The notes under the pieces: model-generated
Told to the model about the DNA's origin: nothing
The model's input: the letters and a program-made list of their open reading frames with translations, nothing else
Database searches by the model: none
Made by a program: the position numbers and the translations under genes
Shown: in pieces, positions 6,200-28,559 of the stretch
Position numbering within the stretch: position 1 is the stretch's first letter
Layout of the letters: each line of letters opens with the position of its first letter
Assembly (NCBI RefSeq): GCF_000009705.1
Contig: NC_003272.1
Location: forward strand, 5,400,001-5,432,000
Direction: 5' to 3'
DNA: 32,000 bases
Origin: Nostoc sp. PCC 7120 = FACHB-418
Lineage (GTDB): Bacteria; Cyanobacteriota; Cyanobacteriia; Cyanobacteriales; Nostocaceae

Positions 6200-6217
6200 T
6201 TGTTGTGATAAAAAGTT

Positions 6218-7122: not shown

Positions 7123-7151
7123 TGCACACAATAAGGTATGGCGCATATAAT
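7123..7151 (+). promoter_or_regulatory. Candidate sigma70-type promoter in the long region upstream of nblA
   Basis: TGCACA (7123-7128), a 17-nt spacer, then a perfect TATAAT (7146-7151). If used, it would give nblA a leader of about 345 nt. This is a pattern match only. Confidence 0.25.
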
Positions 7152-7700: not shown

Positions 7701-8160
7701 AGTTGCTATGTGTCGCAGTGGGCGACCTCCTTCTCTTGCTCAGTTCCAGGGAGGAAAAGAGCTGGGGATGCTGGGGCGTCAACTTCCGACCGGAACAAGT
7801 TCACATTGACTAAAAAGAAATCACTCAAAACTAAACATGGCATCTACTTTCAGATGTTAAGTACTGTCGTCTTTTAACTTGTTTAGCTTTTTGTTTACCA
7901 AGCTGATAGTATTAGCAAACTTCAACCTTTAAGTGACTACTGGTTAAATCAATGCGTACCTTTGGCTTTTAAATACCGTAAGTACTCTTAGACACCCTAT
8001 TTTTATGCTTAACCAGGAGCGTATTTTTCACTAACACTGATGATCATTATATTTATTGCCAATAATAGTTACAACTACGTTATATATTTTATTTATAAAA
8101 ATTTACATATTTAGACAAGGTGTTTCACTAATACAGATGTTACAGATAATCCAGACAGTC

Positions 8161-9723: not shown

Positions 9724-10091
9724 AGAAAATTGGACTCCAATATTCAACAATGGTGAACTACACCTGTACTGAAAAAGTGCAGAGTAGTATTAGCAGGATG
9801 ATAAGCAGTTTTCTGTTAGCGGTAGCGGGGTGTTTAGCCCGTAAAATTCACCAGCCTCTCACCTCTAAACCTCTAGTCCCCTTTTCATTTATCCTGATAT
9901 ACACAGTTCATTATGGATACTCAGGATATGAGTACTAAGTTCTGTGGTTGAGGAGCGCAAACAAAAAATAATAGGTAGATGTATCCTAATCTTCTGCACT
10001 GGGATTTTGATGTAGTTCTAGTTTGCCCAATTTTTCTGTGGTAGATAACTTAAGGGATGTCAAAATTATGGGGATTGGCGAAAAGATACCC

Positions 10092-10694: not shown

Positions 10695-11873
10695 TCACCC
10701 TTGATGAATTTCTCCCAACAAAACTTCATGTGGTGCGCCTGTGGCTGTTGGTAGGTTGCCTGGAATGGCTAATTGTCGCCAGTGAGCTAAAACAGCAAAG
10801 GCGATCGCTTCTTTAAAGTCGGCACTCACGCCTGCTTCATCGGTGGTCAAGACTGGGACTGTTTCTAACGCTAACTGTAATCTTTGTTTTAAATACAAAT
10901 TACGACTACCACCGCCACATAAAAATACACGTTGTGGCATTTGTGGTAAAAAAGTACGGTAACTGTGAACAATGGAAGCTACAGTTAGTTCCGTAAGTGT
11001 TGCTAGCATATCAGCTGGACTAAGTTGGTATGGTTCGGCATCTTGGAAACATTGATTTAGGTAAGCCACACCAAACAATTCTCGACCAGTCGATTTAGGT
11101 GGTGAGAGATGAAAATATTCATGGGTGAGCCATTTTTCGACTAAAGGATAGCAAGGAGTTCCACTGGCTGCCCATTGACCATCTTCATCATAGGTTTTAG
11201 CACCAGCCGTCAGACGTTCTACTGCTAAATCTAACAGGCTATTACTTGGGCCTGTGTCCCAACCACAAATTTGTGAAAGCCAGTCATCAGTACGCGCTGG
11301 GATATAGGCAAGGTTACCAATACCACCTAAATTTTGAATACAACGACTTTCATGGGGATGACTCAGTAAAAAGGCATCGACTCTGGGAACAAGTGGTGCG
11401 CCATGACCACCAACAGCGATATCAGCAACACGAAAATTACTGACAGTTGTAATTCCCGTCAAATAGGCAATCATCTCACCACGACCAAGCTGGAGAGTAT
11501 AACCAAGGTTTTTCTTCCCTACTCCTGCTTCTTTTGGTGGTCGATGATACACAGTTTGACCATGAGAGCCAATTAAATTTGCTGGCTGATAACCTATTTG
11601 AATATTTTGAGCAGCTTGGGCAAAAGCTAGGGCGATCGCATCATCCATATGTGCAAGTTCCAACATGGAAATAGCTTCGCCTGCACAAACTGCCAATATG
11701 CGTTCTCTTAAGTCCGCAGGATAAGGATATGTTTTTCCTGCTAGTAACTCAACTTTCAGATCCAATTCTGTGCCAGTAATCTCTACTAAGGCGGCATCTA
11801 TACCATCTACAGATGTGCCACTGATTAAACCGACAACACGGTTAGGAACGGCAGATGCTTGAGAAGAATACAT
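10695..11873 (-). CDS. anmK: Anhydro-N-acetylmuramic acid kinase
   Basis: The N-terminus [20 protein letters not shown] matches the AnmK signature (GxMSGTSxDGxD in E. coli). Also present are GSHGQTVYH and CGGGSRN. The length of 392 aa is typical. Confidence 0.9.
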
Positions 11874-13754: not shown

Positions 13755-14360
13755 CTAACGACACTGGCGATATTTGATGTGATAAACCAAACCACGATGA
13801 GCAAGGTCAAAAGAGTCAACGGTGGCCATCCCTTGACCACTGGCGGTCATGGCAGCGTTCACCCGCATATTCACACTATCACCACAGCGTGACCAGACAT
13901 CAGCCACGGTCACTAATTGATCTCGGACATTGTAGTCTGTTTCGCCTCTAAATGTCCGAGAAAAAACAGGGCCACGCTGACCAGCAAAAAAGTACTCTGC
14001 CCTGAGTCTCCCTGTTGTCTTGGGAGCAACATAACCTCGATAATCAGCATCATAGAGGGAGATTTGAAAGCCTTGGGGTACTTTGATCGGAATGCTCAAA
14101 TTACAACTTTTGCGGCTTTCTCCTGACTTATTACCCACAGCTATAAAGTTGTCGAAGAGGATACTTAGTTCTTGACCATCGGGGCTGACACTGACGCTGG
14201 CAGATCCGTCAGGGCAACCATTACCGCCATATTCTGCACCTAAAATCGTAACTTTGTCATTAGCAAGAGCAGGGCCAACAGAAGCGGTAATTAGTGTAGC
14301 CGCAGTCAGAAAAGCTTGGATAAAATTGATAGATGTTTTCTTGATGTTGGGATTATTCAC
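13755..14360 (-). CDS. Secreted DUF4360-like protein
   Basis: The signal peptide is FIQAFLTAATLITASVGPALA. The mature part VTILGAEYGGNGCPDGSASVSVSPDGQELSILFDNF...RKSCNLSI...DADYRGY...WSRCGD follows the conserved Cys/aromatic pattern I associate with DUF4360. The start is GTG, preceded by AGGTGA. Confidence 0.62.
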   Translation of the reverse strand: MNNPNIKKTSINFIQAFLTAATLITASVGPALANDKVTILGAEYGGNGCPDGSASVSVSPDGQELSILFDNFIAVGNKSGESRKSCNLSIPIKVPQGFQISLYDADYRGYVAPKTTGRLRAEYFFAGQRGPVFSRTFRGETDYNVRDQLVTVADVWSRCGDSVNMRVNAAMTASGQGMATVDSFDLAHRGLVYHIKYRQCR

Positions 14361-15091
14361 GATTCACCTAACTTGAGTAATTTGAATAGTCTTAGATCCA
14401 AATATGATGTATGCAATTCCAGAAAAATTATTTAGGGAATTCTGCATGAATCATACTTTTTTTGTAGAGTAGAGCTTGTATATAACATTATTGACAGCAT
14501 GGTTTGTGGCATAGATTATAGTTATAAGATAAGCATAATCTAGCCAAATAATTAACTTATTAATCAATGAGCTAAATACAAGTTTTTAACTCTACGTTGT
14601 ATAGATTATCAATTATTAAATTAGTCGGCAAAAAATAGCAACGGATAGCATTATCAACAATTTCGATACTCATAGTTATCGATGAATTGGCTGATCATAA
14701 CTACTGAAGCCACATTTGCATACTGCATTTAAGCTAACTAAAGTTACACTGAATAGCTGATACAAACATCTAAACAGAATTCAGATTTATTAGTCAGAAG
14801 GAGCTTTTGCTTGTAATGTCGTTGGATGAATTAGCGACATTATTCGAGGTGCTAAATCCAATATTTAGCAGAGTATAATTAGTAAGATTTTTTCCACTAA
14901 TTAATTGTGATTTTCAGCTTCCGACTCCTTAGTCAAGCTTTTAATATTTAATCTATACTCGCTCAATGACTAAGAATTTTGTCTTGTGTTCCCGTAAAAT
15001 GAGTTAAGTAATCACATTGATAATTAAGTATCGATCGCCAACGGTAGGCGGAACGCCTCGCCTAAATTTTTATTGCATTTCGTTGATGTGA

Positions 15092-15181
15092 TTACTCAAT
15101 TTTGATCTCACTCCAACACGTATTGCCGGATTTATGTTTGTGATTCTGGGTATTTCCTTAGTTGCGTATGCAAAACGGTAG
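15092..15181 (+). pseudogene. Relic of the 3' end of a DMT/EamA-type transporter gene
   Basis: A stop-to-stop frame encodes LLNFDLTPTRIAGFMFVILGISLVAYAKR*. This resembles the last TM helix and basic tail of an EamA domain, but no upstream coding sequence precedes it. A HIP1-hairpin repeat lies directly upstream at 15029-15062. Confidence 0.3.
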
Positions 15182-15908
15182 CAGAAAAGAAGCGATCGCC
15201 TGTATCAGTATCATAGATGCGATCGTATCTTTTTGTTTACTGGAGTTTTACCTTACGTCGTAACACGTTAGTATTACAGAGAAGAAAAATAAGTCTGCCT
15301 AATCCAGCTTTACTCTCAAAACACCTATGTGCAGGGTTGAAGCTAGGAACGGAGGAACCAAGTTTGGGGCGTATCTGCCAAAAAAGCTGAAGCTAAAGTA
15401 TGAAAAAGAGATTTCAAATTTTAGACTTAGAGCATTTAGAGAAGGACATCTCTCAGTCCTAGCCCGTCAGCTAACTTCGTAGGCATTGAGAGGAGATTGA
15501 ACGAGCAGCATTTATACAAATAATGCCTGTCGTCAGTATCCTTGGCTGGTAAACTTACGCTTCGTTTTACCTGTCCTCGCACTGGAAGTCAGGGTTTTAT
15601 AGTCTGTGTTTCTAGGGGCTGAGGTCGGATTAGTTGCCTTGAGGTACAGTTGATCATGTTTTTGAAGATAAATCATCCCTTTACTTTCATCACAGTAGAT
15701 ATTGTTAGCGCCACCATAAATAGGATTGAAAGTTTGTTTTTTCCCATAAAGAAGATTCCAACACAGTACTGATAAAACTTTGATCAAACTGTAGAGAAAA
15801 CATCTGTCATTGTGCTAGGTGTAAATTTTTGATGCAGCTTGGTTGAATTAGTTTGTCAGAAAAACTCAGCATAGAAGCACGTATTCGTAAACATTACAGG
15901 AGAATAAA

Positions 15909-16151
15909 ATGTCTATTAAAAATCGCAACTTTTTCACTGATGTTAACTTTTTACCTGAGCATAAATTTAAGTTAATTGGAGAGTTTGCCGGGAAAAAGCT
16001 CTTACTAATTGGCAGAACTAATGCCTATGGCGATCCCATCGTAGCAGCAAGCCATAGTAGTGAACCTAACCACGAAGATTTATACGCTTATGACTTATAC
16101 GAGTTGATGAAGTGTAATCACGAACTAGTTAATCTCACTGGAGAAATCTAG
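15909..16151 (+). CDS. Hypothetical small protein (80 aa)
   Basis: ATG start preceded by ACAGGAGAATAAA (GGAG 8 nt upstream). No recognisable motif. It lies within the AT-rich, gene-poor stretch. Confidence 0.35.
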   Translation: MSIKNRNFFTDVNFLPEHKFKLIGEFAGKKLLLIGRTNAYGDPIVAASHSSEPNHEDLYAYDLYELMKCNHELVNLTGEI

Positions 16152-16695
16152 TCAATTAATGGGGTGGGGTGATAGGGATAATTTATTTTTTGGTGTTCCC
16201 TTACACCGTTCTAGTCATACACATCAATAATTAGTGCCGATCTTTTGTTATGTGGCGTGTTTTCGTGTAAAGCAACACACCATTTGAGGTTTTATAGGTG
16301 TAAATATTAACACCTATAAAATCCCAATCACTGAAATAAAAATATTGTAAAGTTTTGTAACATACCGGATAACTTTGTCCTACTTCTACAGAAATACCTA
16401 TAGAACCGCAACTGGAATCTCCATATACCGCGTTCAATAACATCAGAGATATAACAGAATTTATGTTGTATCTCTGCCTTCCTTATAAGCTTGTATGGTT
16501 TGCTAACTGCTAACACCTAACGGTAAAACCGAAAAGATATGCAAGTTAAATGTACGACAGTTTATGTATTTCTTAAATATTAATTAAAGCTATGTGTTAT
16601 GAAAGTGCCAATAGTAGATTTATTTCATCACCATCTGGGTTTTTTGTTACCAATAAAGGATAAACAATAATTATAAAATACCTGGAAATAGGGTA

Positions 16696-17016
16696 ATGAA
16701 TAATCCAATTCTCGCAACTGCTAGTGTTGTAATTGCTTTCGGTATCATTGTTGGTGTCTTCATTGTGGGATTAATTTATATCCAACGGCGACGACAAGCA
16801 GTAGACAGTTTGATCCGTATTAATAACGTGGTTGGTTGTTTTGGGATTGTGGAAGTTCCCATAAACCAAAATAGTCCAGGAAAAGTACGGATCAATCTCA
16901 AAGGTTCTCTAGTAGACTTTGTAGCTTTCACCGATGAAATTCATCAATTTAATCAAGGTGATTCTGTTGTTATCGTGCGAATTAAGGGAAATAAGGTTTG
17001 GGTGGTTAATGTTTAG
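16696..17016 (+). CDS. NfeD-family membrane protein (YuaF/YqiJ-like)
   Basis: One N-terminal TM helix (ILATASVVIAFGIIVGVFIVGLIYI), followed by a short beta-rich C-terminal domain GIVEVPINQNSPGKVRINLKGSLVDFVAFTDE...GDSVVIVRIKGNKVWV typical of the NfeD OB-fold. It sits directly upstream of the flotillin genes, as in the Bacillus yuaF-floT pair. Confidence 0.8.
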   Translation: MNNPILATASVVIAFGIIVGVFIVGLIYIQRRRQAVDSLIRINNVVGCFGIVEVPINQNSPGKVRINLKGSLVDFVAFTDEIHQFNQGDSVVIVRIKGNKVWVVNV

Positions 17017-17063
17017 CAAGAGAGGGCAGGAGGCAGTTTATAGTGCGGTTTAGAAGGATATTC

Positions 17064-17112
17064 TGATGACGGTTGACAGTTGAGAAATTACTAATGACTC
17101 TTGATAAATAAC
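17064..17112. repeat. Heptamer-periodic STRR-like array filling the NfeD-flotillin spacer
   Basis: TGATGAC GGTTGAC AGTTGAG AAATTAC TAATGAC TCTTGAT AAATAAC: seven 7-nt units ending 1 nt before the flotillin ATG. Confidence 0.7.
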
Positions 17113-17113
17113 T

Positions 17114-18457
17114 ATGAATTTAATTAAACAAGAATTAGCGACTGTAACAGTAGCACAAGTTGATCCGAATACACCTGCTACTAACAAAGAAAATAATGGC
17201 ATAGAAAGTCTACTTTATGGTGGTCTGCCTATTGCTCTATCTATTTTTGGTGCATTTGTACTTGTGTGGTTTATCAAGTCTTTTTTATGTATTTGTAAAC
17301 CCAACGAAATCTTGATACTTTCGGGACGCAAATGGCGGACTAAAGATGGACAAGAGATGGGTTATCGAGTGTTATTAGGTGGGCGCGCCATTCGGATTCC
17401 TATAGTGGAAACGGTAAAACGGATGGATGTAACAACTATGCCGGTAAGGGTGGAAGTGCGGAATGCTTACGCCAAAGGGGGAACGCCTTTAAATATTCAA
17501 GCGATCGCCAATGTGAAAATTTCCTCAGATCCGGTGGTTGTCGGTAACGCCATTGAACGCTTTTTAGACCGCGATCGCTCGGAATTGGCTCGTGTTTCCC
17601 GCGAAACCCTAGAAGGCTATCTCCGGGGTGTTGTCGCTACCCTCACACCAGAAGAACTCAACGAAGACCGCCTGAGTTTTGCCCAACGTATCGCCTCCGA
17701 TGTCAGCCGCGACCTTAGTAAACTGGGATTGCAACTGGACACCCTAAAAATTCAAAGCGTTTCTGACGATGTAGACTATCTCAAATCTTGGGGACGTAAA
17801 CAAATTGCCCTGGTGATTCGAGACGCAGAGATTGCCGAATCCAACGCACTCACCCAAGCCGAACAAATCGAAGCCCAATCCGAAGAATATGCCCAAGTCG
17901 CCAAAACCCAAGACAAAATCATTGTGTTGGAGAAAGAAAACGAACTCCGCACCATCAAAGCCCAGCTAGAACAGAGAGCCAAGTCTGAAGAAGAAATTAC
18001 CACGGCGGCTGCACAAGAAAAGAAAGCCAAAGCCGAACAAGTCTTACAAGTACTACGGGCTGAGTTAGAACGCCTACGCCTACAAGCCGATGAAGTCCTA
18101 CCCGCCGAAGCCCGTCGCCAAGCCCAAGAACTCCGAGCCAAAGGGGAAGCAGCTTTCCTAGAAGAAAATGCCAAAGCCGCAGCGTTAGTTAACGACATTC
18201 TTTCCCAAGTTTGGCAGCAAACCGGCAGCGACGCTTCTAAGTTATTCCTCATTCAACAAATTGAAACCGTTCTCCAAGAAGCAGTGCAGATTCCTAAACG
18301 TATTCACCTAGAGAAGGTAAATGTGATTGATAACGGCGATGGCAAATCCGTAGCCAGCTTGGTAAATATTTACCCCGAAATCGTGCTGCAATTCCTAGAA
18401 AACGTTAATCGTACCCTGGGTATTGATGTTACAGGGGCGTTGGGGAGTGGGGATTAG
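17114..18457 (+). CDS. Flotillin-like SPFH/Band-7 protein, paralog 1
   Basis: N-terminal hydrophobic segment LLYGGLPIALSIFGAFVLVWFI, then an SPFH core (ILILSGRK...GYRVLLGGRAIRIPIVETVKRMDV...NIQAIANVKI), then a long Ala/Glu/Gln/Lys coiled coil (EQIEAQSEEYAQVAKTQ...AEARRQAQELRAKGEAA) as in FloT/FloA-type flotillins. Confidence 0.88.
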   Translation: MNLIKQELATVTVAQVDPNTPATNKENNGIESLLYGGLPIALSIFGAFVLVWFIKSFLCICKPNEILILSGRKWRTKDGQEMGYRVLLGGRAIRIPIVETVKRMDVTTMPVRVEVRNAYAKGGTPLNIQAIANVKISSDPVVVGNAIERFLDRDRSELARVSRETLEGYLRGVVATLTPEELNEDRLSFAQRIASDVSRDLSKLGLQLDTLKIQSVSDDVDYLKSWGRKQIALVIRDAEIAESNALTQAEQIEAQSEEYAQVAKTQDKIIVLEKENELRTIKAQLEQRAKSEEEITTAAAQEKKAKAEQVLQVLRAELERLRLQADEVLPAEARRQAQELRAKGEAAFLEENAKAAALVNDILSQVWQQTGSDASKLFLIQQIETVLQEAVQIPKRIHLEKVNVIDNGDGKSVASLVNIYPEIVLQFLENVNRTLGIDVTGALGSGD

Positions 18458-18516
18458 GGACTGGGGACTGAGGATTAGGGCAGGAGTAGGAACTAATTAC
18501 CAATTACCACTAACAA
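18440..18516. repeat. STRR heptamer array of 11 units spanning the 3' end of flotillin 1
   Basis: TTGGGGA GTGGGGA TTAGGGA CTGGGGA CTGAGGA TTAGGGC AGGAGTA GGAACTA ATTACCA ATTACCA CTAACAA. The first units are the complement of the CCCCA(A/G)T class. The array encodes the last residues (LGSGD) and the stop codon of flotillin 1. Confidence 0.8.
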
Positions 18517-18522
18517 ATGTAC

Positions 18523-18542
18523 AGACGCGATTAATCGCGTCT
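18523..18542. repeat. Perfect 20-bp palindrome between the two flotillin genes
   Basis: AGACGCGATTAATCGCGTCT is its own reverse complement. It lies 17 nt upstream of the flotillin 2 ATG and could act as an RNA hairpin or as a binding site for a dimeric protein. Confidence 0.5.
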
Positions 18543-18558
18543 CTAACAACTAACAATT

Positions 18559-19827
18559 ATGGAAATTATCGCTTTACTTTTAGGAATTTTTGGAACTGGA
18601 ACCGCCGCAGGTTGGTGGGTGATTCGCAACTTGTACTATATCTGCCAACCTAGCGAAGTGCTGATTTTTGCGGGGAGTCGGACTCAGGTTGATGATAGGC
18701 GATCGGTTGGTTATCGCTTGGTGAAAGGTGGTAGTAGTATTCAAATCCCTCTGTTGGAAAAAACTTTCCGCATGGATTTGACTAACATGATTATTGAACT
18801 GAAGGTGTCCAACGCCTACTCAAGAGGTGGGATTCCTTTAACGGTGGAAGGAGTGGCAAATATTAAAATTGCTGGTGAAGAACCGACAATTCACAATGCC
18901 ATTGAGCGACTTTTGGGTAAAAGCCGCAAAGATATTGAACAATTAGCCAAGGACACATTGGAAGGTAATCTGCGGGGGGTATTGGCGAATCTCACGCCAG
19001 AACAGGTGAACGAAGATAAAATCACCTTTGCTAAAACTTTGTTGGAAGAAGCCGAAGATGATTTAGAAAAACTAGGATTGGTACTAGACAACCTGCAAAT
19101 CAAGAATATTTTTGATGAGGTTCTTTACCTAGATTCTATTGGACGCAAACAACAGGCAGAGTTGCTGCGAGATGCGCGGATAGCTGAAGCGGAAGCTAAA
19201 GCCCAAGCGATCATTAAATCTTCAGAAAATCTCCGCATTACTAAACTGAGACAAATTGAACGGGATTTGCAAATTGCTAAAGCCGAAGCAGAACGCAGAG
19301 TTAGAGATGCACTCACCAAGCGTGTTGCTGTGATTGCAGAGGTGGAATCGGTGGTCAATTCCCAAATTGCCAAGGTGCAGGCAGAAGTAGCAGTGCAAAC
19401 AGAACGGATTATTCAAGTAGAAAACCAACTACAAGCGGATATAGTTGCCCCAGCCGAGGCAGAATGTCACAGTGCGATCGCTCAAGCTAAGGGAGATGCT
19501 GCCAAAATCATCGAAGAAGGCAAAGCCCAAGCCGCAGGAACCCAGCGTCTAGCTGAATCTTGGCAAAATGCAGGCGCATCGGCGCGAGAAATCTTTATCT
19601 TCCAAAAACTCGAACCATTATTGAAAATGATGGCTGCGGGAGTACCTGAGGTAGAAGTAGAAAATTTAACTGTGATTGATGCGGCTAATGGTGGTGGTGT
19701 GCCGAAAATAGCCTCTTTAATTGAGCAATTACGTCAAACTACTGGTGTCGATGTTGCTCAAGTGATCAATCAGCTCAAGTCTGATGGTAAAAATGGCAAG
19801 GTTGGCTCAAATTTGGATCAAGGTTAG
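18559..19827 (+). CDS. Flotillin-like SPFH/Band-7 protein, paralog 2
   Basis: Same architecture as paralog 1: an N-terminal hydrophobic segment, the SPFH core VLIFAGSR...GYRLVKGGSSIQIPLLEKTFRMDL...VEGVANIKI, and a coiled coil. My hand alignment gives about 45 percent identity to paralog 1 over the SPFH core. Confidence 0.88.
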   Translation: MEIIALLLGIFGTGTAAGWWVIRNLYYICQPSEVLIFAGSRTQVDDRRSVGYRLVKGGSSIQIPLLEKTFRMDLTNMIIELKVSNAYSRGGIPLTVEGVANIKIAGEEPTIHNAIERLLGKSRKDIEQLAKDTLEGNLRGVLANLTPEQVNEDKITFAKTLLEEAEDDLEKLGLVLDNLQIKNIFDEVLYLDSIGRKQQAELLRDARIAEAEAKAQAIIKSSENLRITKLRQIERDLQIAKAEAERRVRDALTKRVAVIAEVESVVNSQIAKVQAEVAVQTERIIQVENQLQADIVAPAEAECHSAIAQAKGDAAKIIEEGKAQAAGTQRLAESWQNAGASAREIFIFQKLEPLLKMMAAGVPEVEVENLTVIDAANGGGVPKIASLIEQLRQTTGVDVAQVINQLKSDGKNGKVGSNLDQG

Positions 19828-19841
19828 TAAGAAAGTCAAGC

Positions 19842-20486
19842 ATGGATGAATTAACAGCACTTGTGAAACAAACCTGTCAGCATCCAAGGGGGAGTATTGA
19901 ACGCCAAAAAGGACTGCATGAAATTATCTGGCGGATTCAGCAGTCTGGTAAATTGTTTCGGGGTACGGGTGTACCTAATGCAGAGGAAGCATTGCAGAAA
20001 ACATGGCTGTATTTTTGCCTCAATCTCTGCGAAGCTACAACCAGTGAGGAACCATACAATTCCAGCCAAGGAAGTGTGATTACTTGGCTGAATGCCTACT
20101 TGCGGTACAGGCTGAAAGATATCGTTGTTCCTAATCAAAAAATCATTTATTCTTCGTCAGATGAAAATGGCGAAGAAATAGATCCCACAGATTTGATTCC
20201 CGCACGACCAGAACCACCACCCATTCTAGAGGAAATTCAGGAATGGTTAAAACAAGAAGCTCATACTTTACGCCGTATTTACGTAACCAATCGCCCAGAT
20301 ATCAATTGTTTGGTGTTGATTGAACGTCGCTTACCGCCAGAAACTTCTTGGAAGGACTTATCTCAAGAGTTTGATGTCTCCATTGCAACCCTGAGTGGTT
20401 TCTATCAACGCCATTGTTTTCCCCGCCTCCTAAATTTCGGCATATCCCAAGGTTATATTGATCATGAGTATGAGTTACCTAAGTGA
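19842..20486 (+). CDS. Sigma-70-family-like (ECF-sized) transcription factor
   Basis: At 214 aa it has a region-2-like segment (EEALQKTWLYFCLNL...VITWLNAYLRYRLKD) and a C-terminal region-4-like HTH (LVLIERRLPPETSWKDLSQEFDVSIATLSGFYQRHCFPRL). The ATG lies 14 nt after the flotillin 2 stop. The assignment rests on motif resemblance only. Confidence 0.6.
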   Translation: MDELTALVKQTCQHPRGSIERQKGLHEIIWRIQQSGKLFRGTGVPNAEEALQKTWLYFCLNLCEATTSEEPYNSSQGSVITWLNAYLRYRLKDIVVPNQKIIYSSSDENGEEIDPTDLIPARPEPPPILEEIQEWLKQEAHTLRRIYVTNRPDINCLVLIERRLPPETSWKDLSQEFDVSIATLSGFYQRHCFPRLLNFGISQGYIDHEYELPK

Positions 20487-21630
20487 ACAGCAAAGCATAT
20501 CTGTACCGATTCCAGAAAGTTTTCGCCAAATAGCTCTGGAATTTGCCCAAGAACAACCAATTTCTACAAAAGCGAAACAAGTATATTTAAATACATTAGC
20601 TGTACAAGTAGTTAATAGCTATTTAGCTATGTTAGATATCCCCACAGAACTAGAAGCTAGCTATAGTTGGCATCCACGGGGGCGCTTGACGGCTGATGTT
20701 GCAGATTTACTATTAACTGGTGTGGGACGTTTGGAATGTCTGCCGATGCGGACGGGCGATCGCACTTGTAAAATTCCCCCAGAAGTTTGGGATAATCGCA
20801 TTGGTTATGTTGTTGTGGAAATTAATCACACTTGTAAGGAAGGGAAAATTAGAGGGTTTGTCACCAGTGTCAACACTCCAGAAATTACCCTTGAACAACT
20901 GCGATCATTAACAGTATTAATTGAACATTTGCATCTAGTACATTTACGGCAATGGCTAGAAGGCATCTACACAAATAATTGGCAAAGTATAGAAGAATTA
21001 TCAAGCCAAAGAAGCACTCAATTAGCCTTTCGTTCTAAACGTGTGCGGGGTTGGGAATTTGACAATCCCGAAAAAGCTTGGCAAGTAGTTGAGCAATTAT
21101 ATCCTGCTCACAGTTGGGAAAAAAATTTACCGCCGGAACTATTAGCCAGTTTTCCTTGGAGAAGATTAGGCGATATAGAAGTATCTCCCACTACTAATAA
21201 TTACACTAAATTTACTGAAGCGATCGCTCATCTTTTAAAAACAACTCCAGACGAAGAAACTCGCTGGACTTTGGCAGAAATTTTGTGGACTCTTGCACCC
21301 AATCATCCTGCTGTCAGTGCTAGACGCATCATTGATTTAGGAATGCAGCTGGCAGGCCATCCTGTCGCTTTAATGGTAGCAATTTTAGCCAAACCGGATA
21401 GGAATGTGGCTGTCTTATTGCGCGTGTATCCAATGGGAAATCAGCCTTATTTACCACCAGGATTGCAATTAGCAGGACTAGATGAAAATGGCAAATCATT
21501 TTTAGAAGTCCAAGCACGAGAAAATAAAGATGATTACATCCAGTGCAAGTTTTGTGCAGAATTCGGCGAAAAATTTCAAGTTCGGGTTAGTATGAATAAT
21601 GTAAGTTTTACAGAAAATTTTGTCATTTAA
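20464..21630 (+). CDS. DUF1822 family protein
   Basis: The N-terminal pattern KAKQVYLNTLAVQVVNSYLAMLDI...GRLECLPMRTGDRTCKIPPEVWDNRIGYVVVEI...IRGFV follows the conserved layout I recall for cyanobacterial DUF1822 proteins. The ATG at 20464 overlaps the upstream gene by 23 nt; the ORF-track start at 20458 is TTG. Confidence 0.68.
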   Translation: MSMSYLSEQQSISVPIPESFRQIALEFAQEQPISTKAKQVYLNTLAVQVVNSYLAMLDIPTELEASYSWHPRGRLTADVADLLLTGVGRLECLPMRTGDRTCKIPPEVWDNRIGYVVVEINHTCKEGKIRGFVTSVNTPEITLEQLRSLTVLIEHLHLVHLRQWLEGIYTNNWQSIEELSSQRSTQLAFRSKRVRGWEFDNPEKAWQVVEQLYPAHSWEKNLPPELLASFPWRRLGDIEVSPTTNNYTKFTEAIAHLLKTTPDEETRWTLAEILWTLAPNHPAVSARRIIDLGMQLAGHPVALMVAILAKPDRNVAVLLRVYPMGNQPYLPPGLQLAGLDENGKSFLEVQARENKDDYIQCKFCAEFGEKFQVRVSMNNVSFTENFVI

Positions 21631-21657
21631 TAGACAAATTATTATAGGGAAGAAACA

Positions 21658-24600
21658 GTGGGTAAGCTGGTTATCTTCGAGATTGGAGAAGGCAGTTTTC
21701 AGCAGGGGTTTCCTGTGAAAATTAGAATTGGGGAAGAGCGTAAACCTCATTCTACGGAAATTCTCGGCAGATTGCCACCAGCATTAACAATTCCTCAACA
21801 CTATTATGAATGGCAATCAAGTTATCGTCACTTGCCAGCAAATTGGTTAATTACTGTTCCCGAAACTCAAATTACTAATGTATCCACCATAGAGACTTGT
21901 CATCATGCTGCTCAAAGATTTCAATTTAGTTTTAATGAATGGTTAAATCAACCAGTAGTTAGACAATTGGAACGGCAATTATTACAAAAAGTTGGTGATT
22001 GGCAGGATATACGCTTTATTTTACAAACACAAGATTCCTTACTAAGACGCATTCCTTGGCATCTATGGGATATTTTTCATGATATCCATCCCCGTCCAGA
22101 AATTATAGTTAGTTCTGAATATGAACCGTCTAAAAAACAATTAATAAATCCAGTGAAAATTCTGGTAGTTCTTGGCAACAATCGAGGTATTGATATTCAA
22201 CAGGATTTAGAAACAATCAAAAAATTACCTAGTGCCATTATTGAACTGTTGCAAGAACCATCACGCCAACAACTTAGAGATAAATTATGGACTCAATCTT
22301 GGGATATTTTCTTTTTTGCAGGGCATAGTTGTAGTCATCAAGATGATATTTCTGGACAAATTCAAATTAATGCCAAAGAAACTTTATCACTAGATAGTCT
22401 GCGTCACACACTCCGCCACGCTGTGAAGAAAGGATTAAAATTAGCTATATTTAATTCTTGCGATGGTGTAGGATTAGCACGCAATTTGGCTGATGTGCGG
22501 ATTCCTTATACAATTGTTATGCGGGAACCTGTTCCCGACATAGTAGCACAACATTTTTTAAGATATTTCTTAACAGCATTTGCATCAGGCGAGTCTTTAT
22601 ACGCATCAGTCCAACAAAGTCGCGCTCGCCTGCAAGAAGAATTAGAAAACGATTATCCTTGCGCTTCCTGGCTACCTGTGATTTTTCAAAATCCAGCAGC
22701 AGCAGAATTAAAATATCCCCAACCTAGTAATTGGGCAAAAATAGGATTTAAGGCAGCTATTTTTATAGGTTTGTTAGTTACTGGGAGTTATATTTTTACA
22801 ACAGTTGTTAATGAGTGGAGGTTTCGCGGACGCTTTAGTGATGGTAATAATCTTTTAGTGAAAACATTTACAAATACTCATAAACAAGATGGCATCAAAG
22901 CGTTTCAGCAAGGTAATTACCAATTAGCTCAAGAGAAGTTTCAAGCGTCCTTACGAGAGTATTATAATGACCCAGAAACATTAATCTATTTTAATAATGC
23001 TAAAGTTGCCAATCAGCCGATACTAAAAATTGGTGTTGCTGTCCCTATCGGGACTAACTCCAATGTCGCTCAAGAAATTTTGCGCGGAGTTGCACAAGCA
23101 CAACAAGAAATAAATCATCAAGGTGGCATTCACGGCAAGTTTTTAAAAGTTGTTCTTGCCAACGATGATAATAAACCAGAAATTGCCAAACAAGTAGCCC
23201 AGAGATTTGTTCAAGATGCAGATATATTAGCAGTAGTAGGACATAACAGTAGTGATGCAAGTGTCCCTGCATCTGATATTTATCAGGCAGGAAAATTAGT
23301 CATGGTTTCACCAACTAGCAGTTCTACAAGATTAACAGATCGTCCTCGTCTTGATAGTCATGGTAATTATATTTATCGCACAATTATTAGCTTTAATGTG
23401 ATTGCCGAAAGTTTAGCTGAATATGCCAAAACTGCTGGTATTAATAGGGTAATGATTTGTAGCGATTCACAAGCCGCAGATCAGTCTTTTGAACAAGCAT
23501 TTGTGAATGCAATAATTTACAAACGCTTGCAACATATTAATAATATAAATTGTGATTTCGCCTCAGAAGATTTTCGTCCAGAGACTATTGTAAAAGATGC
23601 GATCGCCCAAAATGTAGATGCTATTTTACTCAATCCCCAAGTTGATAGAATGAGTAAAGCGGTGGAGATAGGGAAATTTAATCAAGGTAAGGTACGATTA
23701 TTAGGAAATCCCAGCTTACAAACTAAAACCATACTCGATGCAGGCGATGTAATTAAGGGAATGGTGATAGCAACTCCTTGGTTAGCAGATGTTTCTCCTA
23801 ATCAAGAATTTGTGCAGAATGCCAAAAATCTCTGGCGTGAATCAGATTTAATTACTTGGCGTACAGCTACCGCCTTTGATGCTACCAAGGCTATCGCCGC
23901 AGCCTTGAAACAGGAAGACGACACCAGAAGCGGTATCCAAAAAGCCTTGGCGCGAAATTTTTCTTTACAAAGTGCGACAGGAACAATTCAGTTTTTATCT
24001 TGGGGCGATCGCAAAGGCGATCGCGTGGGCAATGCTATCTTAGTAGAAGTAAAACCAGACTCCAACGCACCCAGTGGCTACAGTTTCGTCCCGAAAAACT
24101 CTCTACAACATAGGATCAGTTTGGGAGATAAAATCTTAATCCAAGATAACCCTAGTCATGAAAAGCAACTAGGTGTAGAAGCTTTTGCTGTAGGTAATTA
24201 TCAACAGGCGATCGCCCTATTTCAACTATCTCTGCAAAAGGTATTTAATGACCCAGAAACACGCATATATTTACAAAATTCTTTGGCTGCTCGTAGTGGT
24301 AAAAGCTTGAGAATAGCGGTTAGTGTCCCTATTGGTAGTAACTTGAATGTTGCGAAAGAAATACTCCAGGGTGTAGCTCAAGCTCAAGATGAAATCAATC
24401 GCCAAGGTGGGATTCAAGGACATTTACTACAAGTAGAAATTGCCACCGATGATAATAACCCAGAAATTGCTCAAAAATTAGCAAGTTACTTTGTGACCGA
24501 TAAGCAAATTTTAGCTGTTATTGGTCATAATGCCTCAGACGCTTCTGTAGCCGCTTGTCCTATTTATCAAGCAGGTAAACTAGTTAATATTTCCCCCACC

Positions 24601-25398
24601 AGCTTTTCTGTAAAATTATCAGGATGTGGTGCGTATATATTCCGTACCGCCCCTAATATTAGACTTATTGCTGATATTCTTTCCAACTATGCGATTAAAA
24701 CAGTAAAGACAAAAAACTTAGCAATTTGCGTAGATGAACAGGCTATAGATAATCAATCATTTCGAGATGAATTTACCTCCGCTATCATTATTTATGGCGG
24801 AAATCTTGTGAATATCCCCTGTGATTTTTCTGCACCTGATTTTAACCCCAATCAAGTAATTACTGAGGCGATTAGTAGTGGTGCTAATGGCTTAGTTTTA
24901 GCACCTCATATAGATAGAATTAACAAAGCTTTAGATATAGCAGCAGCCAATAAAGGTAGATTGAGACTGTTTGCTAGCCCCACACTATACACATCCCAAA
25001 CTTTACAACAAGGGCAAGCCGACGTTAACGGTTTAATGTTAGCAGTCCCCTGGCATCCAGACGGGAATACACAAAATAATTTTAGCCAGAAAGCTCAACG
25101 CCTTTGGGGAAATTCTGTAACTTGGCGTTCCGCTACCAGTTATGATGCAACCCTAGCCGTAATTGCAGGTTTGCAGCAAAGTAAAAATCGTGAAGAATTA
25201 CAAAGAGTTCTACGTAATCCTAAATTTTATGCTGTGGGTGCCACCGGCAAAATTCGCTTTTTCCCATCAGGCGATCGCTATCTCAAAAACGATACTATCT
25301 TAGTAAAGATTCAAGCAAACAAAGCATCTGCAACTGGCTATGACTTTTTTTTGTTAAATGCAGCCAGAAACCAGATTTCCAAAACAAATAGGTTTTAA
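21658..25398 (+). CDS. CHAT-domain (caspase-fold) protease fused through one TM helix to two tandem periplasmic LivK/type-1 solute-binding domains
   Basis: GTG start preceded by AGGGAAG. The catalytic dyad candidates are His223 (FFFAGHSCSH) and Cys268 (AIFNSCDGVG). The TM helix is IGFKAAIFIGLLVTGSYIFTTVV (residues 362-384). Two modules of ~400 aa (residues ~411-815 and ~838-1233) align with each other and carry PBP1 motifs (IGVAVPIG, ILAVVGHNSSDASV, IYQAGKLVMVSPTS). Confidence 0.88.
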   Translation: MGKLVIFEIGEGSFQQGFPVKIRIGEERKPHSTEILGRLPPALTIPQHYYEWQSSYRHLPANWLITVPETQITNVSTIETCHHAAQRFQFSFNEWLNQPVVRQLERQLLQKVGDWQDIRFILQTQDSLLRRIPWHLWDIFHDIHPRPEIIVSSEYEPSKKQLINPVKILVVLGNNRGIDIQQDLETIKKLPSAIIELLQEPSRQQLRDKLWTQSWDIFFFAGHSCSHQDDISGQIQINAKETLSLDSLRHTLRHAVKKGLKLAIFNSCDGVGLARNLADVRIPYTIVMREPVPDIVAQHFLRYFLTAFASGESLYASVQQSRARLQEELENDYPCASWLPVIFQNPAAAELKYPQPSNWAKIGFKAAIFIGLLVTGSYIFTTVVNEWRFRGRFSDGNNLLVKTFTNTHKQDGIKAFQQGNYQLAQEKFQASLREYYNDPETLIYFNNAKVANQPILKIGVAVPIGTNSNVAQEILRGVAQAQQEINHQGGIHGKFLKVVLANDDNKPEIAKQVAQRFVQDADILAVVGHNSSDASVPASDIYQAGKLVMVSPTSSSTRLTDRPRLDSHGNYIYRTIISFNVIAESLAEYAKTAGINRVMICSDSQAADQSFEQAFVNAIIYKRLQHINNINCDFASEDFRPETIVKDAIAQNVDAILLNPQVDRMSKAVEIGKFNQGKVRLLGNPSLQTKTILDAGDVIKGMVIATPWLADVSPNQEFVQNAKNLWRESDLITWRTATAFDATKAIAAALKQEDDTRSGIQKALARNFSLQSATGTIQFLSWGDRKGDRVGNAILVEVKPDSNAPSGYSFVPKNSLQHRISLGDKILIQDNPSHEKQLGVEAFAVGNYQQAIALFQLSLQKVFNDPETRIYLQNSLAARSGKSLRIAVSVPIGSNLNVAKEILQGVAQAQDEINRQGGIQGHLLQVEIATDDNNPEIAQKLASYFVTDKQILAVIGHNASDASVAACPIYQAGKLVNISPTSFSVKLSGCGAYIFRTAPNIRLIADILSNYAIKTVKTKNLAICVDEQAIDNQSFRDEFTSAIIIYGGNLVNIPCDFSAPDFNPNQVITEAISSGANGLVLAPHIDRINKALDIAAANKGRLRLFASPTLYTSQTLQQGQADVNGLMLAVPWHPDGNTQNNFSQKAQRLWGNSVTWRSATSYDATLAVIAGLQQSKNREELQRVLRNPKFYAVGATGKIRFFPSGDRYLKNDTILVKIQANKASATGYDFFLLNAARNQISKTNRF

Positions 25399-25496
25399 TT
25401 TTACATATTGTGTGATGCTGAATTGAGAAAGTTGCATTCCTCCTACCCCACCGGGGAAGCAAACTACACGTAGTATCCCGTAAACAAGGGGTTATT

Positions 25497-26954
25497 ATGT
25501 CGGAAACTGTAGAAATCGAACGTCATCGAGCTGCGATCGCTCGCACGGAAATCTCTCGTCCTGTACGATTGGCTATAGAATGGGCAATCCTGAACCCAGA
25601 CAAGACTTTTTTTGACTATGGCTGTGGTTATGGTGGCGATGTCCAGCGTGTAGCTAACCTTGGCTACACCAGTACAGGTTGGGATCCGTACTACTATCCT
25701 GATGCAGCCATTAACCCCGCCGATGTGGTGAATTTGGGTTACGTCCTCAACGTCATCGAAGACCAAGAAGAACGCCGCCAAAGCCTCATCCAAGCCTGGG
25801 AACTCACTCGCAACGTTTTAATCGTCGCCGCCCAAGTATTAATTAACGCTCCCAGTAAAGCTCAACTGGCTTACAGTGACGGTATTGTCACCAGTCGTAA
25901 TACTTTTCAAAAATATTACGAACAACAAGAACTGAAAAAATATATTGATGAAGTCTTAAACGTTGAGGCTGTCCCTGTGGCGCTTGGGGTTTATTTTGTC
26001 TTCCGTGATGAAGCCGAAAAAGAAAGCTTCAAAGCCATCCGTTTCTTTTCTCGCACCTCTACACCGCGAGTCCGCATTCCGGTAAAACGGTTTGAAGACT
26101 ATCAAGAACAACTCGCGCCCCTCATGGAATTTTTCACCAAACGGGGTAGACTGCCAGTAAAAGGAGAACTAGCCACCGCACCAGAATTACTGGGTGAATT
26201 TGGCAACTTCCGCCGGGCTTTCGCAGTTGTCCTGCAAGCCACCGATGAGGCAGAATGGGATGCGATCGCCTATCGTCGTTCTTTAGATATTCAAGTTTAC
26301 CTTGCCCTCACCCACTTTGATAAACGTCCCAAATTCTCCCAACTAGCGCCAGAAATGCGCCACGACATCAAAGCTTTCTTTGGCAGCTACGAGGAAGCCT
26401 GTAATGTTGCCGACCAAAAACTCTTTAGTTTAGGTCAACCAAAAGTAGTCCAGACAGCCTGTGACAAAAGCAAAATCGGTAAACATACACGAGGCGCTTT
26501 ATACGTCCACGTTTCTGCATTAGCAGCCCTTGACCCCTTGCTACGAATTTACGAAGGTTGTGCGAGCCGTACCATTGGGCGTGTCGATGGAGCTACCCTA
26601 ATCAAATATTACACCGACCAACCGCAAATATCCTATCTGTTTTATCCAGACTTCGACACAGACCCCCACCCATCCTTAAAAGCCAGTATCACAATTGACT
26701 TAAAAACACTGTATGTAACTCACCGCGACTATAGCACCAGAGCCAATCCACCTGTACTTCACCGTAAGGAAACTTTTGTTACTCCCAACTATCCCCTGTA
26801 TGAACAATTTGCTAAACTCACCCAACAAGAGCAGGAATTAGGACTACTCCAACAGAAAAGCGAAATTGGTACTCGTGAAGGTTGGGAAAAATGCCTCGCT
26901 GCTCACGGTGTAGAAATTAGGGGACATGAAATTCATGTGATTCGGGAAGATTAA
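25497..26954 (+). CDS. Homolog of the DNA phosphorothioation-associated putative methyltransferase family
   Basis: The N-terminus RHRAAIARTEISRPVRLA...FFDYGCGYGGDVQRV...GWDPYY (a SAM motif I-like DYGCGYGGD), together with the C-terminal GALYVHVSAL...LLRIYEGCA...ISYLFYPDFDTDPHP...NPPVLHRKETFV, matches my memory of this TIGRFAMs family. No dnd genes are in the window. Confidence 0.6.
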   Translation: MSETVEIERHRAAIARTEISRPVRLAIEWAILNPDKTFFDYGCGYGGDVQRVANLGYTSTGWDPYYYPDAAINPADVVNLGYVLNVIEDQEERRQSLIQAWELTRNVLIVAAQVLINAPSKAQLAYSDGIVTSRNTFQKYYEQQELKKYIDEVLNVEAVPVALGVYFVFRDEAEKESFKAIRFFSRTSTPRVRIPVKRFEDYQEQLAPLMEFFTKRGRLPVKGELATAPELLGEFGNFRRAFAVVLQATDEAEWDAIAYRRSLDIQVYLALTHFDKRPKFSQLAPEMRHDIKAFFGSYEEACNVADQKLFSLGQPKVVQTACDKSKIGKHTRGALYVHVSALAALDPLLRIYEGCASRTIGRVDGATLIKYYTDQPQISYLFYPDFDTDPHPSLKASITIDLKTLYVTHRDYSTRANPPVLHRKETFVTPNYPLYEQFAKLTQQEQELGLLQQKSEIGTREGWEKCLAAHGVEIRGHEIHVIRED

Positions 26955-27050
26955 GAAAACCCTGATGCTCGTGGAAGTTACTAACACCATTTAGATTAAC
27001 TATGGCAATATAACGGCAATGCGCTCTGGTAAAAAGGAAAAGTATAAACG

Positions 27051-28559
27051 ATGAGAGAAGTTCAAGCACTGCGACAAGCCTTTCAAAGTCGCAAAATGGG
27101 AGCGCTACTACTGCTAGGTTTTGCATCTGGGTTGCCTTTGTTCTTGACTAGTAGAACATTGCAGCTATGGATGCAGGATGCCAAAGTTGATTTAGGAAAA
27201 ATCACCTTATTTGGGTTGTTGGCTTTGCCTTATTCCCTAAAATTTCTGTGGTCGCCCTTATTAGATAGATTTGTCCCACCACTTTTAGGAGCTAGACGGG
27301 GTTGGTTAATATGCACCCAAATTGGGTTAACATTAGCGATCGCTGCCTTAGCATTACAACAACCATCTCAAAGTGACCAAGTACTGCAAATCCTGGCTAT
27401 CAACTGTCTCATCATTACTTTTTTGAGCGCTACCCAAGACATCGCCGGAGATGCTTACCGTACCGATATTTTAAACCCCCTCGAAGCTGAACCTGGTGCA
27501 TCAGTTTGGGTGCTAGGTTATCGCATAGCCTTGTTTATCACCAGTTCCCTAGCGATAGTTTTAGCCGACTATATTCCCTGGAATGGCGTTTACTTACTTA
27601 TGGCTGTTTTCATGGCGGGGAGTATTTTAACTACCTTGTGGTCGCCGCCAGAACCAGAAATCCGCAACGCTATTGAAAAGTATGCACCTATATCTGTTAA
27701 AGACGTTATTTTTATCGTCTTAATCACAGTCTTAGTTGCGGGATTAATTGGCGGTGTCTTTGTCGGTTATATTGCTCTGCCTGTATTTTATTGGTTATTG
27801 GCGAGTTTAATAGTCGCTTGGATTGTCACCTCCTGGCTATTACCCATAGAACTTTTAGGAGAAGTCACAGAAGATAGTCCTCCCCAAAATTTGCAAGCTG
27901 CAATTTTTCTCCCCTTCAAAGAATTTTTTCACAGATTTGGCTTAACTCAAGCCAGCGTCATCCTGATTTTTATTATCCTTTATAAATTAGGTGACTCCCT
28001 AGTAGGTATTACCGCCAACCTGTTCCTGCGAGAAATTGCTTTTACCAAAACTGAGATTGGGGCAATTCAGGCTGGTATGGGTTTTATCGCCACAACTATC
28101 GGCGTATTAGCTGGTGGCGTAATCATGACGAAAATCCACCTCAATCGCAGTTTGTGGATCTTTGGTATTCTTCAATTACTGAGCAACTTAGGTTATTATG
28201 CACTAGCCGTTGCTGGCAAAAATTATTCACTTCTAGTCTTGGCAGTGAATATCGAAAACTTCAGTGCAGGATTAGTGACAGTTGCTACAGTAGCATTCTT
28301 AATGAACCTTTGTAACCATCGCTTTACTACTACTCAATTCGCTTTATTCTCTAGCTTAATGGCTATTAGTAGAGACGTTTTATCTGCACCAGCAGGAGAT
28401 TTGGCTAAAGCCACAGGCTGGCCGGCATTTTTCTTGCTTACCTTAGCAGCAGCATTACCTGGATTGCTGCTTTTGCCTGTTGTCGCCCCTTGGAATCCTA
28501 AACCAGTGGCAATAAATAGACCAGGACTTGATGACGAGGATGTATGGGAAACCAAGTAG
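27051..28559 (+). CDS. ampG: AmpG-family muropeptide MFS permease
   Basis: LLLLGFASGLPLFLTSRTLQLWMQDAKVDLGKITLFGLLALPYSLKFLWSPLLDRFVPPLLGARRGW aligns closely with the E. coli AmpG N-terminus. It has multiple TM segments throughout and is 502 aa long. Confidence 0.88.
   Translation: MREVQALRQAFQSRKMGALLLLGFASGLPLFLTSRTLQLWMQDAKVDLGKITLFGLLALPYSLKFLWSPLLDRFVPPLLGARRGWLICTQIGLTLAIAALALQQPSQSDQVLQILAINCLIITFLSATQDIAGDAYRTDILNPLEAEPGASVWVLGYRIALFITSSLAIVLADYIPWNGVYLLMAVFMAGSILTTLWSPPEPEIRNAIEKYAPISVKDVIFIVLITVLVAGLIGGVFVGYIALPVFYWLLASLIVAWIVTSWLLPIELLGEVTEDSPPQNLQAAIFLPFKEFFHRFGLTQASVILIFIILYKLGDSLVGITANLFLREIAFTKTEIGAIQAGMGFIATTIGVLAGGVIMTKIHLNRSLWIFGILQLLSNLGYYALAVAGKNYSLLVLAVNIENFSAGLVTVATVAFLMNLCNHRFTTTQFALFSSLMAISRDVLSAPAGDLAKATGWPAFFLLTLAAALPGLLLLPVVAPWNPKPVAINRPGLDDEDVWETK

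Follow-up and report, generated by a model that had tools for sequence, protein, structure and literature searches.

The question raised by this locus is whether three closely packed genes, whose products are a sigma-like protein, a DUF1822 protein and a membrane-bound protein carrying a CHAT protease domain, act as one signalling unit in which a ligand bound outside the cell controls a transcription programme by proteolysis. The genes are located on one strand of a 32,000-nt stretch of the Nostoc/Anabaena sp. PCC 7120 chromosome (the window, to which all coordinates of this locus refer). Sequence comparison places them in a module built of an EACC2-caspase protein, a sigma factor of the extracytoplasmic function (ECF) type and a DUF1822 protein, which may operate through ligand-gated cleavage of DUF1822 and release of the sigma factor. 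The three genes are:

19842-20486, + strand: putative divergent ECF-type sigma-70 family protein, 214 amino acids (aa), ATG start (from the list of open reading frames, ORFs; BAB76228.1, presumably alr4529)
20464-21630, + strand: DUF1822 protein, 388 aa from the ATG (ORF list and Pfam; BAB76229.1, presumably alr4530)
21658-25398, + strand: predicted single-pass membrane receptor-protease, 1246 aa, GTG start (ORF list and domain content; BAB76230.1, presumably alr4531)

The proteins were identified as BAB76228.1, BAB76229.1 and BAB76230.1 by an exact-sequence look-up, and the genes are presumably alr4529-alr4531, since the flotillin encoded directly upstream of the triad (BAB76227.1) is alr4528. 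The tight packing claimed in the original prediction, which had been made from the sequence alone, was borne out by the ORF list and the junction sequences: there are three same-strand ORFs, the stop codon of the sigma-like gene (20484-20486) overlaps the DUF1822 ATG (20464) by 23 nt, and 27 nt of spacer (21631-21657) lie between the DUF1822 stop codon and the GTG at which gene 3 starts. The mechanical start of the DUF1822 ORF is a TTG at position 20458. Such packing is beyond chance, because the identical gene order recurs in well above 100 independent cyanobacterial loci.

These loci come from two surveys, one centred on the sigma gene (one genome per species, 80 loci returned, with counts made on the loci with enough sequence and the overlapping loci L001 and L002 counted by hand) and the other centred on DUF1822 (metagenomes, simple tblastn). 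The sigma-centred loci belong to Nostocales, Oscillatoriales, Chroococcidiopsidales, Pseudanabaenales, Acaryochloris and others. In 72 of 73 of them (the exception being L024 alone), the gene directly downstream of the sigma gene encodes DUF1822 and has the same orientation, while a gene with the EACC2-CHAT N-terminal 350 residues was third in about 60 of 70, mostly within 300 nt, and the linkage of the triad held at sigma identities down to 46%. In the DUF1822-centred survey, a sigma-like gene was found directly upstream of DUF1822 in 54 of 73 loci, and complete triads were present in 45 of the 59 metagenome loci with both flanks. Three apparent exceptions (L112, L115 and L120) each contain an ORF of about 250 aa that lies just upstream of DUF1822, together with a gene of about 870 aa in convergent orientation; the upstream ORF gave a sub-threshold Sigma70_r2 match in L112 and L115 (those scanned), and the convergent gene of L112 encodes a CHAT and binding protein.

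The recurrence of this order in both surveys bears out the claim that the three genes form one unit, and supports sigma, DUF1822 and CHAT as one conserved functional unit across cyanobacteria. The triad spans cyanobacterial orders and is not confined to close relatives, which answers the neighbourhood survey proposed earlier. Because other signalling proteins fill the third place where EACC2-CHAT is missing, the sigma-DUF1822 pair is the invariant core and the third gene an exchangeable sensor-protease. Variants at that position include three loci. In L045 (9404-12115 of that locus), a protein with TPRs and a C-terminal CHAT domain, i.e. in a Csx29-like order, replaces EACC2-CHAT after DUF1822. 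A STAND NTPase and a Ser/Thr kinase follow DUF1822 in L064 (5620-8121), and an opposite-strand reverse-transcriptase (RVT_1) ORF, possibly a group II intron, does so in L072 (9700-11178).

The original prediction regarded such a system as undescribed. This claim did not hold, since EACC2-caspase neighbourhoods with ECF sigma and DUF1822 genes had already been described computationally by Kaur, Iyer, Burroughs and Aravind (eLife 2021, PMC8195603). These authors recognized a constant EACC2+caspase module with variable C-termini and proposed that a stimulus triggers autopeptidase activation and that the sigma factor is the output; in their supplement, proteins named DUF1822 by NCBI were scored as TRADD-N+TPRs or helix-turn-helix (HTH)+TRADD-N+TPRs and occur beside EACC2+CASPASE genes. 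The HTH fusions to DUF1822-named proteins support a physical coupling of the module parts. The genes alr4529-alr4531 resemble this module in (i) the constant alpha+beta domain that precedes a caspase/CHAT domain, (ii) the cyanobacterial distribution, (iii) the variable C-terminus with TM (transmembrane)-anchored extracellular sensors (CHASE2, "small-molecule-binding domains") and (iv) the adjoining ECF sigma and DUF1822 genes, and by these features they are assigned to it. The binding-protein version and the PCC 7120 genes are not named in the main text of PMC8195603, and the accessions of the triad were not found in its supplements. No experimental work on the module family or on alr4529-alr4531 was found in the literature, where searches for the alr names turned up only a list of signature proteins.

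The part of the unit that would receive a signal is the product of gene 3, in which the following features were distinguished:

21658-22167, + strand: constant N-terminal domain, residues 1 to ~170, before the caspase fold (conservation across orthologues and paralogues)
22168-22707, + strand: CHAT (caspase-fold, clan CD) catalytic domain (Pfam CHAT, E 1.6e-13, residues 180-361)
22324-22326, + strand: codon of His223 (FFAGHS), a CHAT dyad position
22459-22461, + strand: codon of Cys268 (FNSCDG), a CHAT dyad position
22741-22827, + strand: only predicted TM helix, residues ~362-390 (Kyte-Doolittle scan)
23026-24054, + strand: type-I periplasmic binding module 1, residues 457-799 (Peripla_BP_6 and ANF_receptor)
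24298-25326, + strand: binding module 2, residues ~881-1223, limits approximate (second Peripla_BP_6 stretch)

The CHAT assignment, the one TM helix and the two solute-binding modules were all confirmed, and His223 and Cys268 are in the places claimed. In 58 orthologues and paralogues, the N-terminal 350 residues are constant even when the C-termini are unrelated (column match of 0.48-0.59), His223 and Cys268 are each at least 97% conserved, and conservation falls sharply after residue 350. Residues 1-359 were covered by tblastn at 40-50% identity in CHASE2-type loci. By position and behaviour, residues 1 to ~170 appear to correspond to the EACC2 domain of Kaur et al. The C-termini that follow EACC2-CHAT include CHASE2, PsbP-like, adenylate cyclase+CHASE2, multi-TM, nSTAND1+GUN4, pentapeptide, TIR and macro domains as well as one or two binding modules, in a family of more than 1000 clusters at 90% identity. 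A phmmer search of the N-terminal half containing CHAT against the PDB found no relative, and the HetF model NF045509 was weakly matched by the CHAT core of alr4531 only (E 0.0037).

Peripla_BP_6 matches the gene 3 protein in two stretches (Pfam, E 4e-57), each of them preceded by a TPR-like segment (residues ~405-445 before module 1 and 837-860, TPR_2, before module 2; weak Pfam matches). Module 2 is an internal duplicate of module 1 with about 45% identity (internal repeat by tblastn), and relatives of the protein carry either one binding module (~813 aa) or two (~1240 aa). The modules are tied by NCBIfam to LivJ-type proteins, with urea and pyrroloquinoline quinone (PQQ) binding-protein models matching residues 899-1040, and the closest solved structures are 4mlc and LivJ/LivK. 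Altogether, gene 3 is predicted to encode a single-pass receptor composed of a cytoplasmic adaptor-like domain and an intact CHAT protease, followed by two LivJ-like modules, and we infer that these modules are located outside the cytoplasmic membrane.

The name given by NCBI to BAB76230.1 is "ABC transporter substrate-binding protein", which is misleading given the N-terminal 350-residue cytoplasmic CHAT module. Taken at face value, this name and the LivJ/LivK-related binding modules would make gene 3 a transport component and the triad a set of neighbours without a common function. The protein has no N-terminal signal peptide and opens with the CHAT module, after which comes a TM helix; genes for a permease or an ATPase are absent next to it, and the gene order is kept across cyanobacterial orders even with CHASE2 or PsbP-like domains in place of the binding modules. 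Synteny and architecture effectively refute this annotation, whose residual probability is negligible.

The steep loss of conservation between the CHAT domain and the membrane bears on a further explanation. Caspases are commonly activated by autoprocessing, and a constant N-terminal module with a poorly conserved juxtamembrane linker (after residue 350) would suit a releasable fragment. A stimulus might cause the receptor to cleave itself, so that its EACC2(+caspase) fragment leaves the membrane and then either recruits DUF1822 and the sigma factor or acts upon them, with DUF1822 as an adaptor; this was explicitly proposed for the module family in PMC8195603. Set against it are the 58-sequence alignment, in which no conserved self-cleavage motif was seen between CHAT and the TM helix, and the behaviour of HetF, the closest characterized membrane CHAT protease, which works in trans on PatU3. 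Autoproteolysis is a rather unlikely explanation.

Whether the output of the unit is a sigma factor depends on gene 1. In the AlphaFold2 model of its 214-aa product (mean predicted local distance difference test, pLDDT, of 76.5, with values above 90 in the C-terminal domain), two helical domains are joined by a disordered linker:

N-terminal part of the protein, + strand gene: sigma2-like domain
residues ~95-125, + strand gene: disordered linker
residues ~128-205, + strand gene: sigma4-like C-terminal HTH domain

When this model was compared with the PDB using Foldseek, essentially all of the top 50 matches were sigma factors, headed by the ECF sigmas sigmaE (1or7, probability 0.96), SigL, AlgU, SigK, CnrH and SigW; the E-values were marginal (0.013 and above), though the probabilities reached 0.96. 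An exhaustive profile search defined a family of 911 representatives at 50% identity. Only 2 of 29 close homologues matched Sigma70_r2, and weakly; of 40 divergent family members, 11 matched it (best 7e-11) and 1 matched Sigma70_r4_2. One family member (P0401, E 9e-32 to the family profile) exceeded the threshold of TIGR02937, "sigma70-ECF", with 49.7 bits against a cut-off of 42.9. The broadened family profile, run against the PDB sequences, had its best matches in the Rhodobacter ECF sigma SigE (2q1z, 4e-4) and the M. tuberculosis SigK (4nqw, 1.7e-3). In hhalign, the family alignment A1 and E. coli RpoE were aligned at the correct sigma4.2 HTH segment, but with an E-value of 0.12. A match of another alignment (A3) to E. 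coli RpoE was discarded, as it involved columns in which the window protein has gaps. Long members of the sigma family were tested for HetZ identity and gave no NCBIfam HetZ-type match.

Because the AlphaFold2/Foldseek, Sigma70_r2, TIGR02937 and PDB-profile evidence converges indirectly, we conclude that gene 1 probably encodes a very divergent ECF-type sigma factor, with support at the level of the family and the structure; the case for sigma2 is firmer than that for sigma4. Close homologues share Cys12, Cys63 and Cys192 without exception and Cys59 almost without exception, a pattern that does not extend to the wider family. These residues may form a subfamily-specific metal or redox site.

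The linker of the sigma-like protein (residues 95-125, pLDDT below 50) is long and variable and holds a conserved proline-rich patch, and it could serve as a protease site. The sigma factor might then be the substrate, or the polarity of the switch might be reversed: DUF1822 would be a positive co-factor or adaptor, and the protease would hold the sigma level low until the ligand stops it, or would process the sigma factor. The near-universal sigma-DUF1822 adjacency fits an activator role equally well. A gene located directly downstream of an ECF sigma gene and translationally coupled to it, however, mostly encodes the inhibitor of that factor, and both characterized CHAT-sigma systems cut the sigma-binding partner and not the sigma. 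This arrangement is regarded as unlikely.

The remaining component is the DUF1822 protein. Its assignment was sustained by Pfam, as PF08852 (DUF1822) spans the whole protein (E 4e-101), and the AlphaFold2 model (pLDDT 80.2) has a three-part fold, to which a candidate cleavage site can be added:

residues ~10-145, + strand gene: N-terminal alpha+beta domain (AlphaFold2 model)
residues ~200-277, + strand gene: helical middle with a HEAT-like hairpin (AlphaFold2 model)
residues ~290-387, + strand gene: C-terminal Ig (immunoglobulin)-like beta sandwich (AlphaFold2 model)
21028-21033, + strand: codons of Phe189-Arg190, candidate P1-Arg cleavage site, motif LAFR|S (proposed)

Kaur et al. call DUF1822 a "TPR protein", whereas the model obtained here consists of alpha+beta, helical and Ig-like domains, and nothing in the Foldseek search with the whole model supports a similarity to TRADD-N. 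Given this fold and the Foldseek outcome, the modelled DUF1822 appears to be neither mainly a TPR protein nor a recognizable relative of known sigma inhibitors. Phe189 is invariant in 30 of 30 DUF1822 homologues and Arg190 is present in 24 of them; the motif lies within a low-confidence loop (residues 182-191, pLDDT below 50). The CHAT protease HetF likewise cuts its substrate PatU3 after an Arg (Arg117; PMC9457339).

Taken together, these features suggest the following course of events. A small ligand, probably amino-acid-like, would bind the extracytoplasmic modules of alr4531 and alter the oligomeric state or conformation of the receptor, thereby switching the CHAT protease. DUF1822 would be the cognate partner of the sigma factor, as an inhibitor or adaptor, and the likeliest CHAT substrate, cut after Phe189-Arg190 in the disordered loop; once DUF1822 is cut, the sigma factor would be set free or become active and would start a dedicated transcription programme. 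The cleavage of DUF1822 is proposed because of the analogy with Craspase-Csx30 and HetF-PatU3-HetZ, and both the ligand gating and the role of DUF1822 as the substrate are plausible on that basis. For ligand-gated CHAT cleavage of DUF1822 releasing the sigma factor, within a member of the EACC2-caspase/ECF sigma/DUF1822 module, we estimate a probability of about 0.5.

Several observations weigh against this proposal. The 214-aa sigma-like protein matched no Pfam or NCBIfam model at E-values up to 0.1, sigma models included, which is a negative answer to the hidden Markov model search against Sigma70_r2 and Sigma70_r4 that had been suggested for it; the sigma-like assignment of gene 1 therefore stands for the ECF likeness of the family and the structure, but not for a direct match of the protein itself. 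A profile of its close homologues, run against the PDB sequences, recovered no sigma factor and only spurious matches to designed proteins (e.g. Top7). The whole multidomain DUF1822 model gave generic Ig-like sandwiches in the Foldseek top 50 and no Csx30; no known anti-sigma fold was among its matches, no Pfam anti-sigma model matched the protein, and a Kyte-Doolittle scan showed no hydrophobic segment, so it has no TM helix. The Phe-Arg site is missing from a short DUF1822 subgroup (3 of 30). The receptor topology was deduced from a single hydrophobic segment and from where binding-protein and CHASE2 domains usually lie, and not from a dedicated predictor. Finally, Kaur et al. (PMC8195603) prefer autoproteolytic activation over DUF1822 cleavage.

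A broader version of the proposal can be put forward tentatively, as something more doubtful than probable. The triad would represent a general, cyanobacteria-wide form of transmembrane signalling, in which a caspase-fold protease, gated by direct action of an extracytoplasmic ligand, destroys a soluble anti-sigma factor of a new fold (DUF1822, cut after Phe-Arg) and so releases a cryptic ECF sigma, and the developmental HetF-PatU-HetZ circuit would be a specialized, unlinked offshoot of the same ancestral module.

The surroundings of the triad were also inspected for signs of its expression and role. An nfeD-like gene and two SPFH/Band-7 flotillin genes (16696-19827, + strand) end 14 nt before the sigma gene. 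The nfeD-flotillin-triad arrangement was found in 12 Nostocales loci and not elsewhere among the surveyed loci; because of this limitation to Nostocales, the link is regarded as lineage-specific synteny, possibly within one operon. The genes may be co-transcribed, or the membrane CHAT receptor may be functionally connected with flotillin microdomains.

A scan for consensus sigma-70 promoters and terminators (16000-27200) gave results at chance level. The DNA upstream of the sigma genes was also searched for a conserved promoter of ECF type that would serve autoregulation; this idea was rejected, as the sole over-represented motif was the known RpaB site HLR1 (consensus from bioRxiv 10.1101/443713), present in a minority of loci. 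Its density upstream of the sigma genes is 0.65 sites per kb versus 0.19 in other intergenic DNA of the same loci, i.e. an enrichment of about 3.4-fold (18 sites, Poisson P ~1e-5, which is optimistic given the redundancy of the loci), and the sites are often trailed 24-27 nt later by CTGACA or CCGATA. The window contains an exact HLR1 direct repeat (16344-16361, + strand, ATTGTAAAGTTTTGTAAC) 335 nt upstream of nfeD, with a hairpin (16444-16476) between the site and that gene, and in Brasilonema 39 nt lie between the end of the motif and nfeD. These sites hint that a minority of loci are expressed under light or redox control.

Further upstream, a c-di-AMP (cyclic di-AMP) riboswitch was recognized at 15320-15500 (+ strand; Rfam RF00379, scoring 60 bits where the gathering score is 38, E 1e-11). 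It is placed in a 2.3-kb ORF-poor gap (14360-16696), and on the + strand it is followed first by an 80-aa ORF (15909-16151) and after that by the nfeD-flotillin genes. The window also contains a cluster of signalling enzymes (4409-9750), composed of an ABC1 atypical kinase (4409-6199), a PP2C phosphatase (6218-6940) and a Ser/Thr kinase (8161-9750, - strand). An anhydro-MurNAc kinase (AnmK; 10695-11873, - strand) and an MFS permease (27051-28559, + strand; acetyl-CoA-transporter-like, possibly AmpG-like) hint that peptidoglycan recycling genes flank the region.

A putative methyltransferase associated with DNA phosphorothioation (25497-26954, + strand; TIGR04096, E 1e-220) is encoded 98 nt downstream of the receptor gene. 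There are no dnd genes in the window, and a methyltransferase occurs at that position only in L001, the closest relative. This adjoining gene is one of the points in favour of a conflict or programmed-cell-death system, in which the triad would be an immunity or abortive-infection device controlling a suicide or defence regulon and not a pathway that senses nutrients or the environment; the others are that a survey of apoptosis-like conflict systems brought the family to light (PMC8195603) and that paralogues join EACC2-CHAT to STAND NTPases, TIR and macro domains. On the other side, PADLOC defence models match none of the triad proteins or their neighbours, no CRISPR array or cas gene is present at the locus, the receptor carries extracytoplasmic solute-binding modules and not sensors of intracellular invaders, and the surroundings are housekeeping-like, with a gene order (flotillin genes included) conserved across Nostocales. 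Such a role is considered improbable.

The interpretation offered by the original prediction is thus partly supported: it has the outline right but describes a known kind of system, and the core of its mechanism is proposed by analogy. As the module was predicted computationally in 2021, the value of the locus is that it makes the family testable in a model organism. No characterized member of the sigma family or of the EACC2-CHAT family was found in the literature, despite their size. The copy of the triad studied here is present in the genetically tractable PCC 7120, for which the HetF/PatU3 cleavage assays and the Anabaena RNA polymerase reconstituted in E. coli could be reused, and the misleading public annotation of gene 3 can be corrected. 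If the proposal is true, cyanobacteria hold a large overlooked class of one-polypeptide sensor-proteases, which govern cryptic ECF sigmas and work alongside two-component systems and classical ECF/anti-sigma pairs.

Three further kinds of known systems invite comparison with the triad. Regulated proteolysis of classical ECF sigma/anti-sigma pairs is exemplified by RseA-DegS-RseP with sigmaE, and related logic is found in CalpL-CalpT-CalpS of type III CRISPR. Here the common element is that an extracytoplasmic or second-messenger signal leads to proteolysis of an inhibitor encoded beside the sigma gene. In contrast to the classical pairs, the sensor and the protease of alr4531 are united in one caspase-fold polypeptide, and the candidate inhibitor DUF1822 is soluble, without an anti-sigma fold or a TM helix.

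In Craspase (type III-E CRISPR), the CHAT protease Csx29 (TPR-CHAT) cuts Csx30, a protein with a functional connection to an ECF sigma (PMC9729208, PMC9825189, PMC11106740). The components of this system are Cas7-11/gRAMP-Csx29, Csx30, Csx31 and RpoE, and the likeness consists in a CHAT protease, a partner of an orphan family and an ECF sigma that are encoded together, with proteolysis of the partner as the signalling step, the same logic as that proposed for alr4529-alr4531. Craspase is activated by target RNA on Cas7-11, whereas the input of alr4531 would be a fused extracytoplasmic sensor; moreover, the CHAT domain of Craspase follows TPR repeats, whereas that of alr4531 follows EACC2 (the variant L045 has TPR-CHAT). 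The claim that the locus lacks a CRISPR component was confirmed, as a repeat search, PADLOC and the neighbouring ORFs gave no array or cas gene. The logic of protease, partner and sigma suggested on this model is reasonable, but homology with Craspase is not supported; since DUF1822 gave no Csx30 structural match among its top Foldseek hits, the parallel is an analogy of logic.

Craspase had been named as the nearest precedent, but a closer one exists in the same organism. HetF of Anabaena sp. PCC 7120 is a membrane protein that combines a CHAT domain in the cytoplasm with a TM segment and a TPR domain in the periplasm, and it cuts PatU3 after Arg117 (PMC9457339). PatU3 is the inhibitor of HetZ. 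In 2026 HetZ was shown to be a sigma of ECF type whose sequence has diverged too far for it to be recognized, and hetZ is located directly upstream of patU in one operon (PMC13342950). This system differs from the triad in that hetF is unlinked to hetZ-patU, HetZ has 401 aa with three insertion domains, and the HetF ectodomain is composed of TPRs, whereas that of alr4531 is built of solute-binding modules. The two share the organism, a membrane CHAT protease and a gene directly downstream of the sigma gene, which encodes the inhibitor in one case and DUF1822 in the other.

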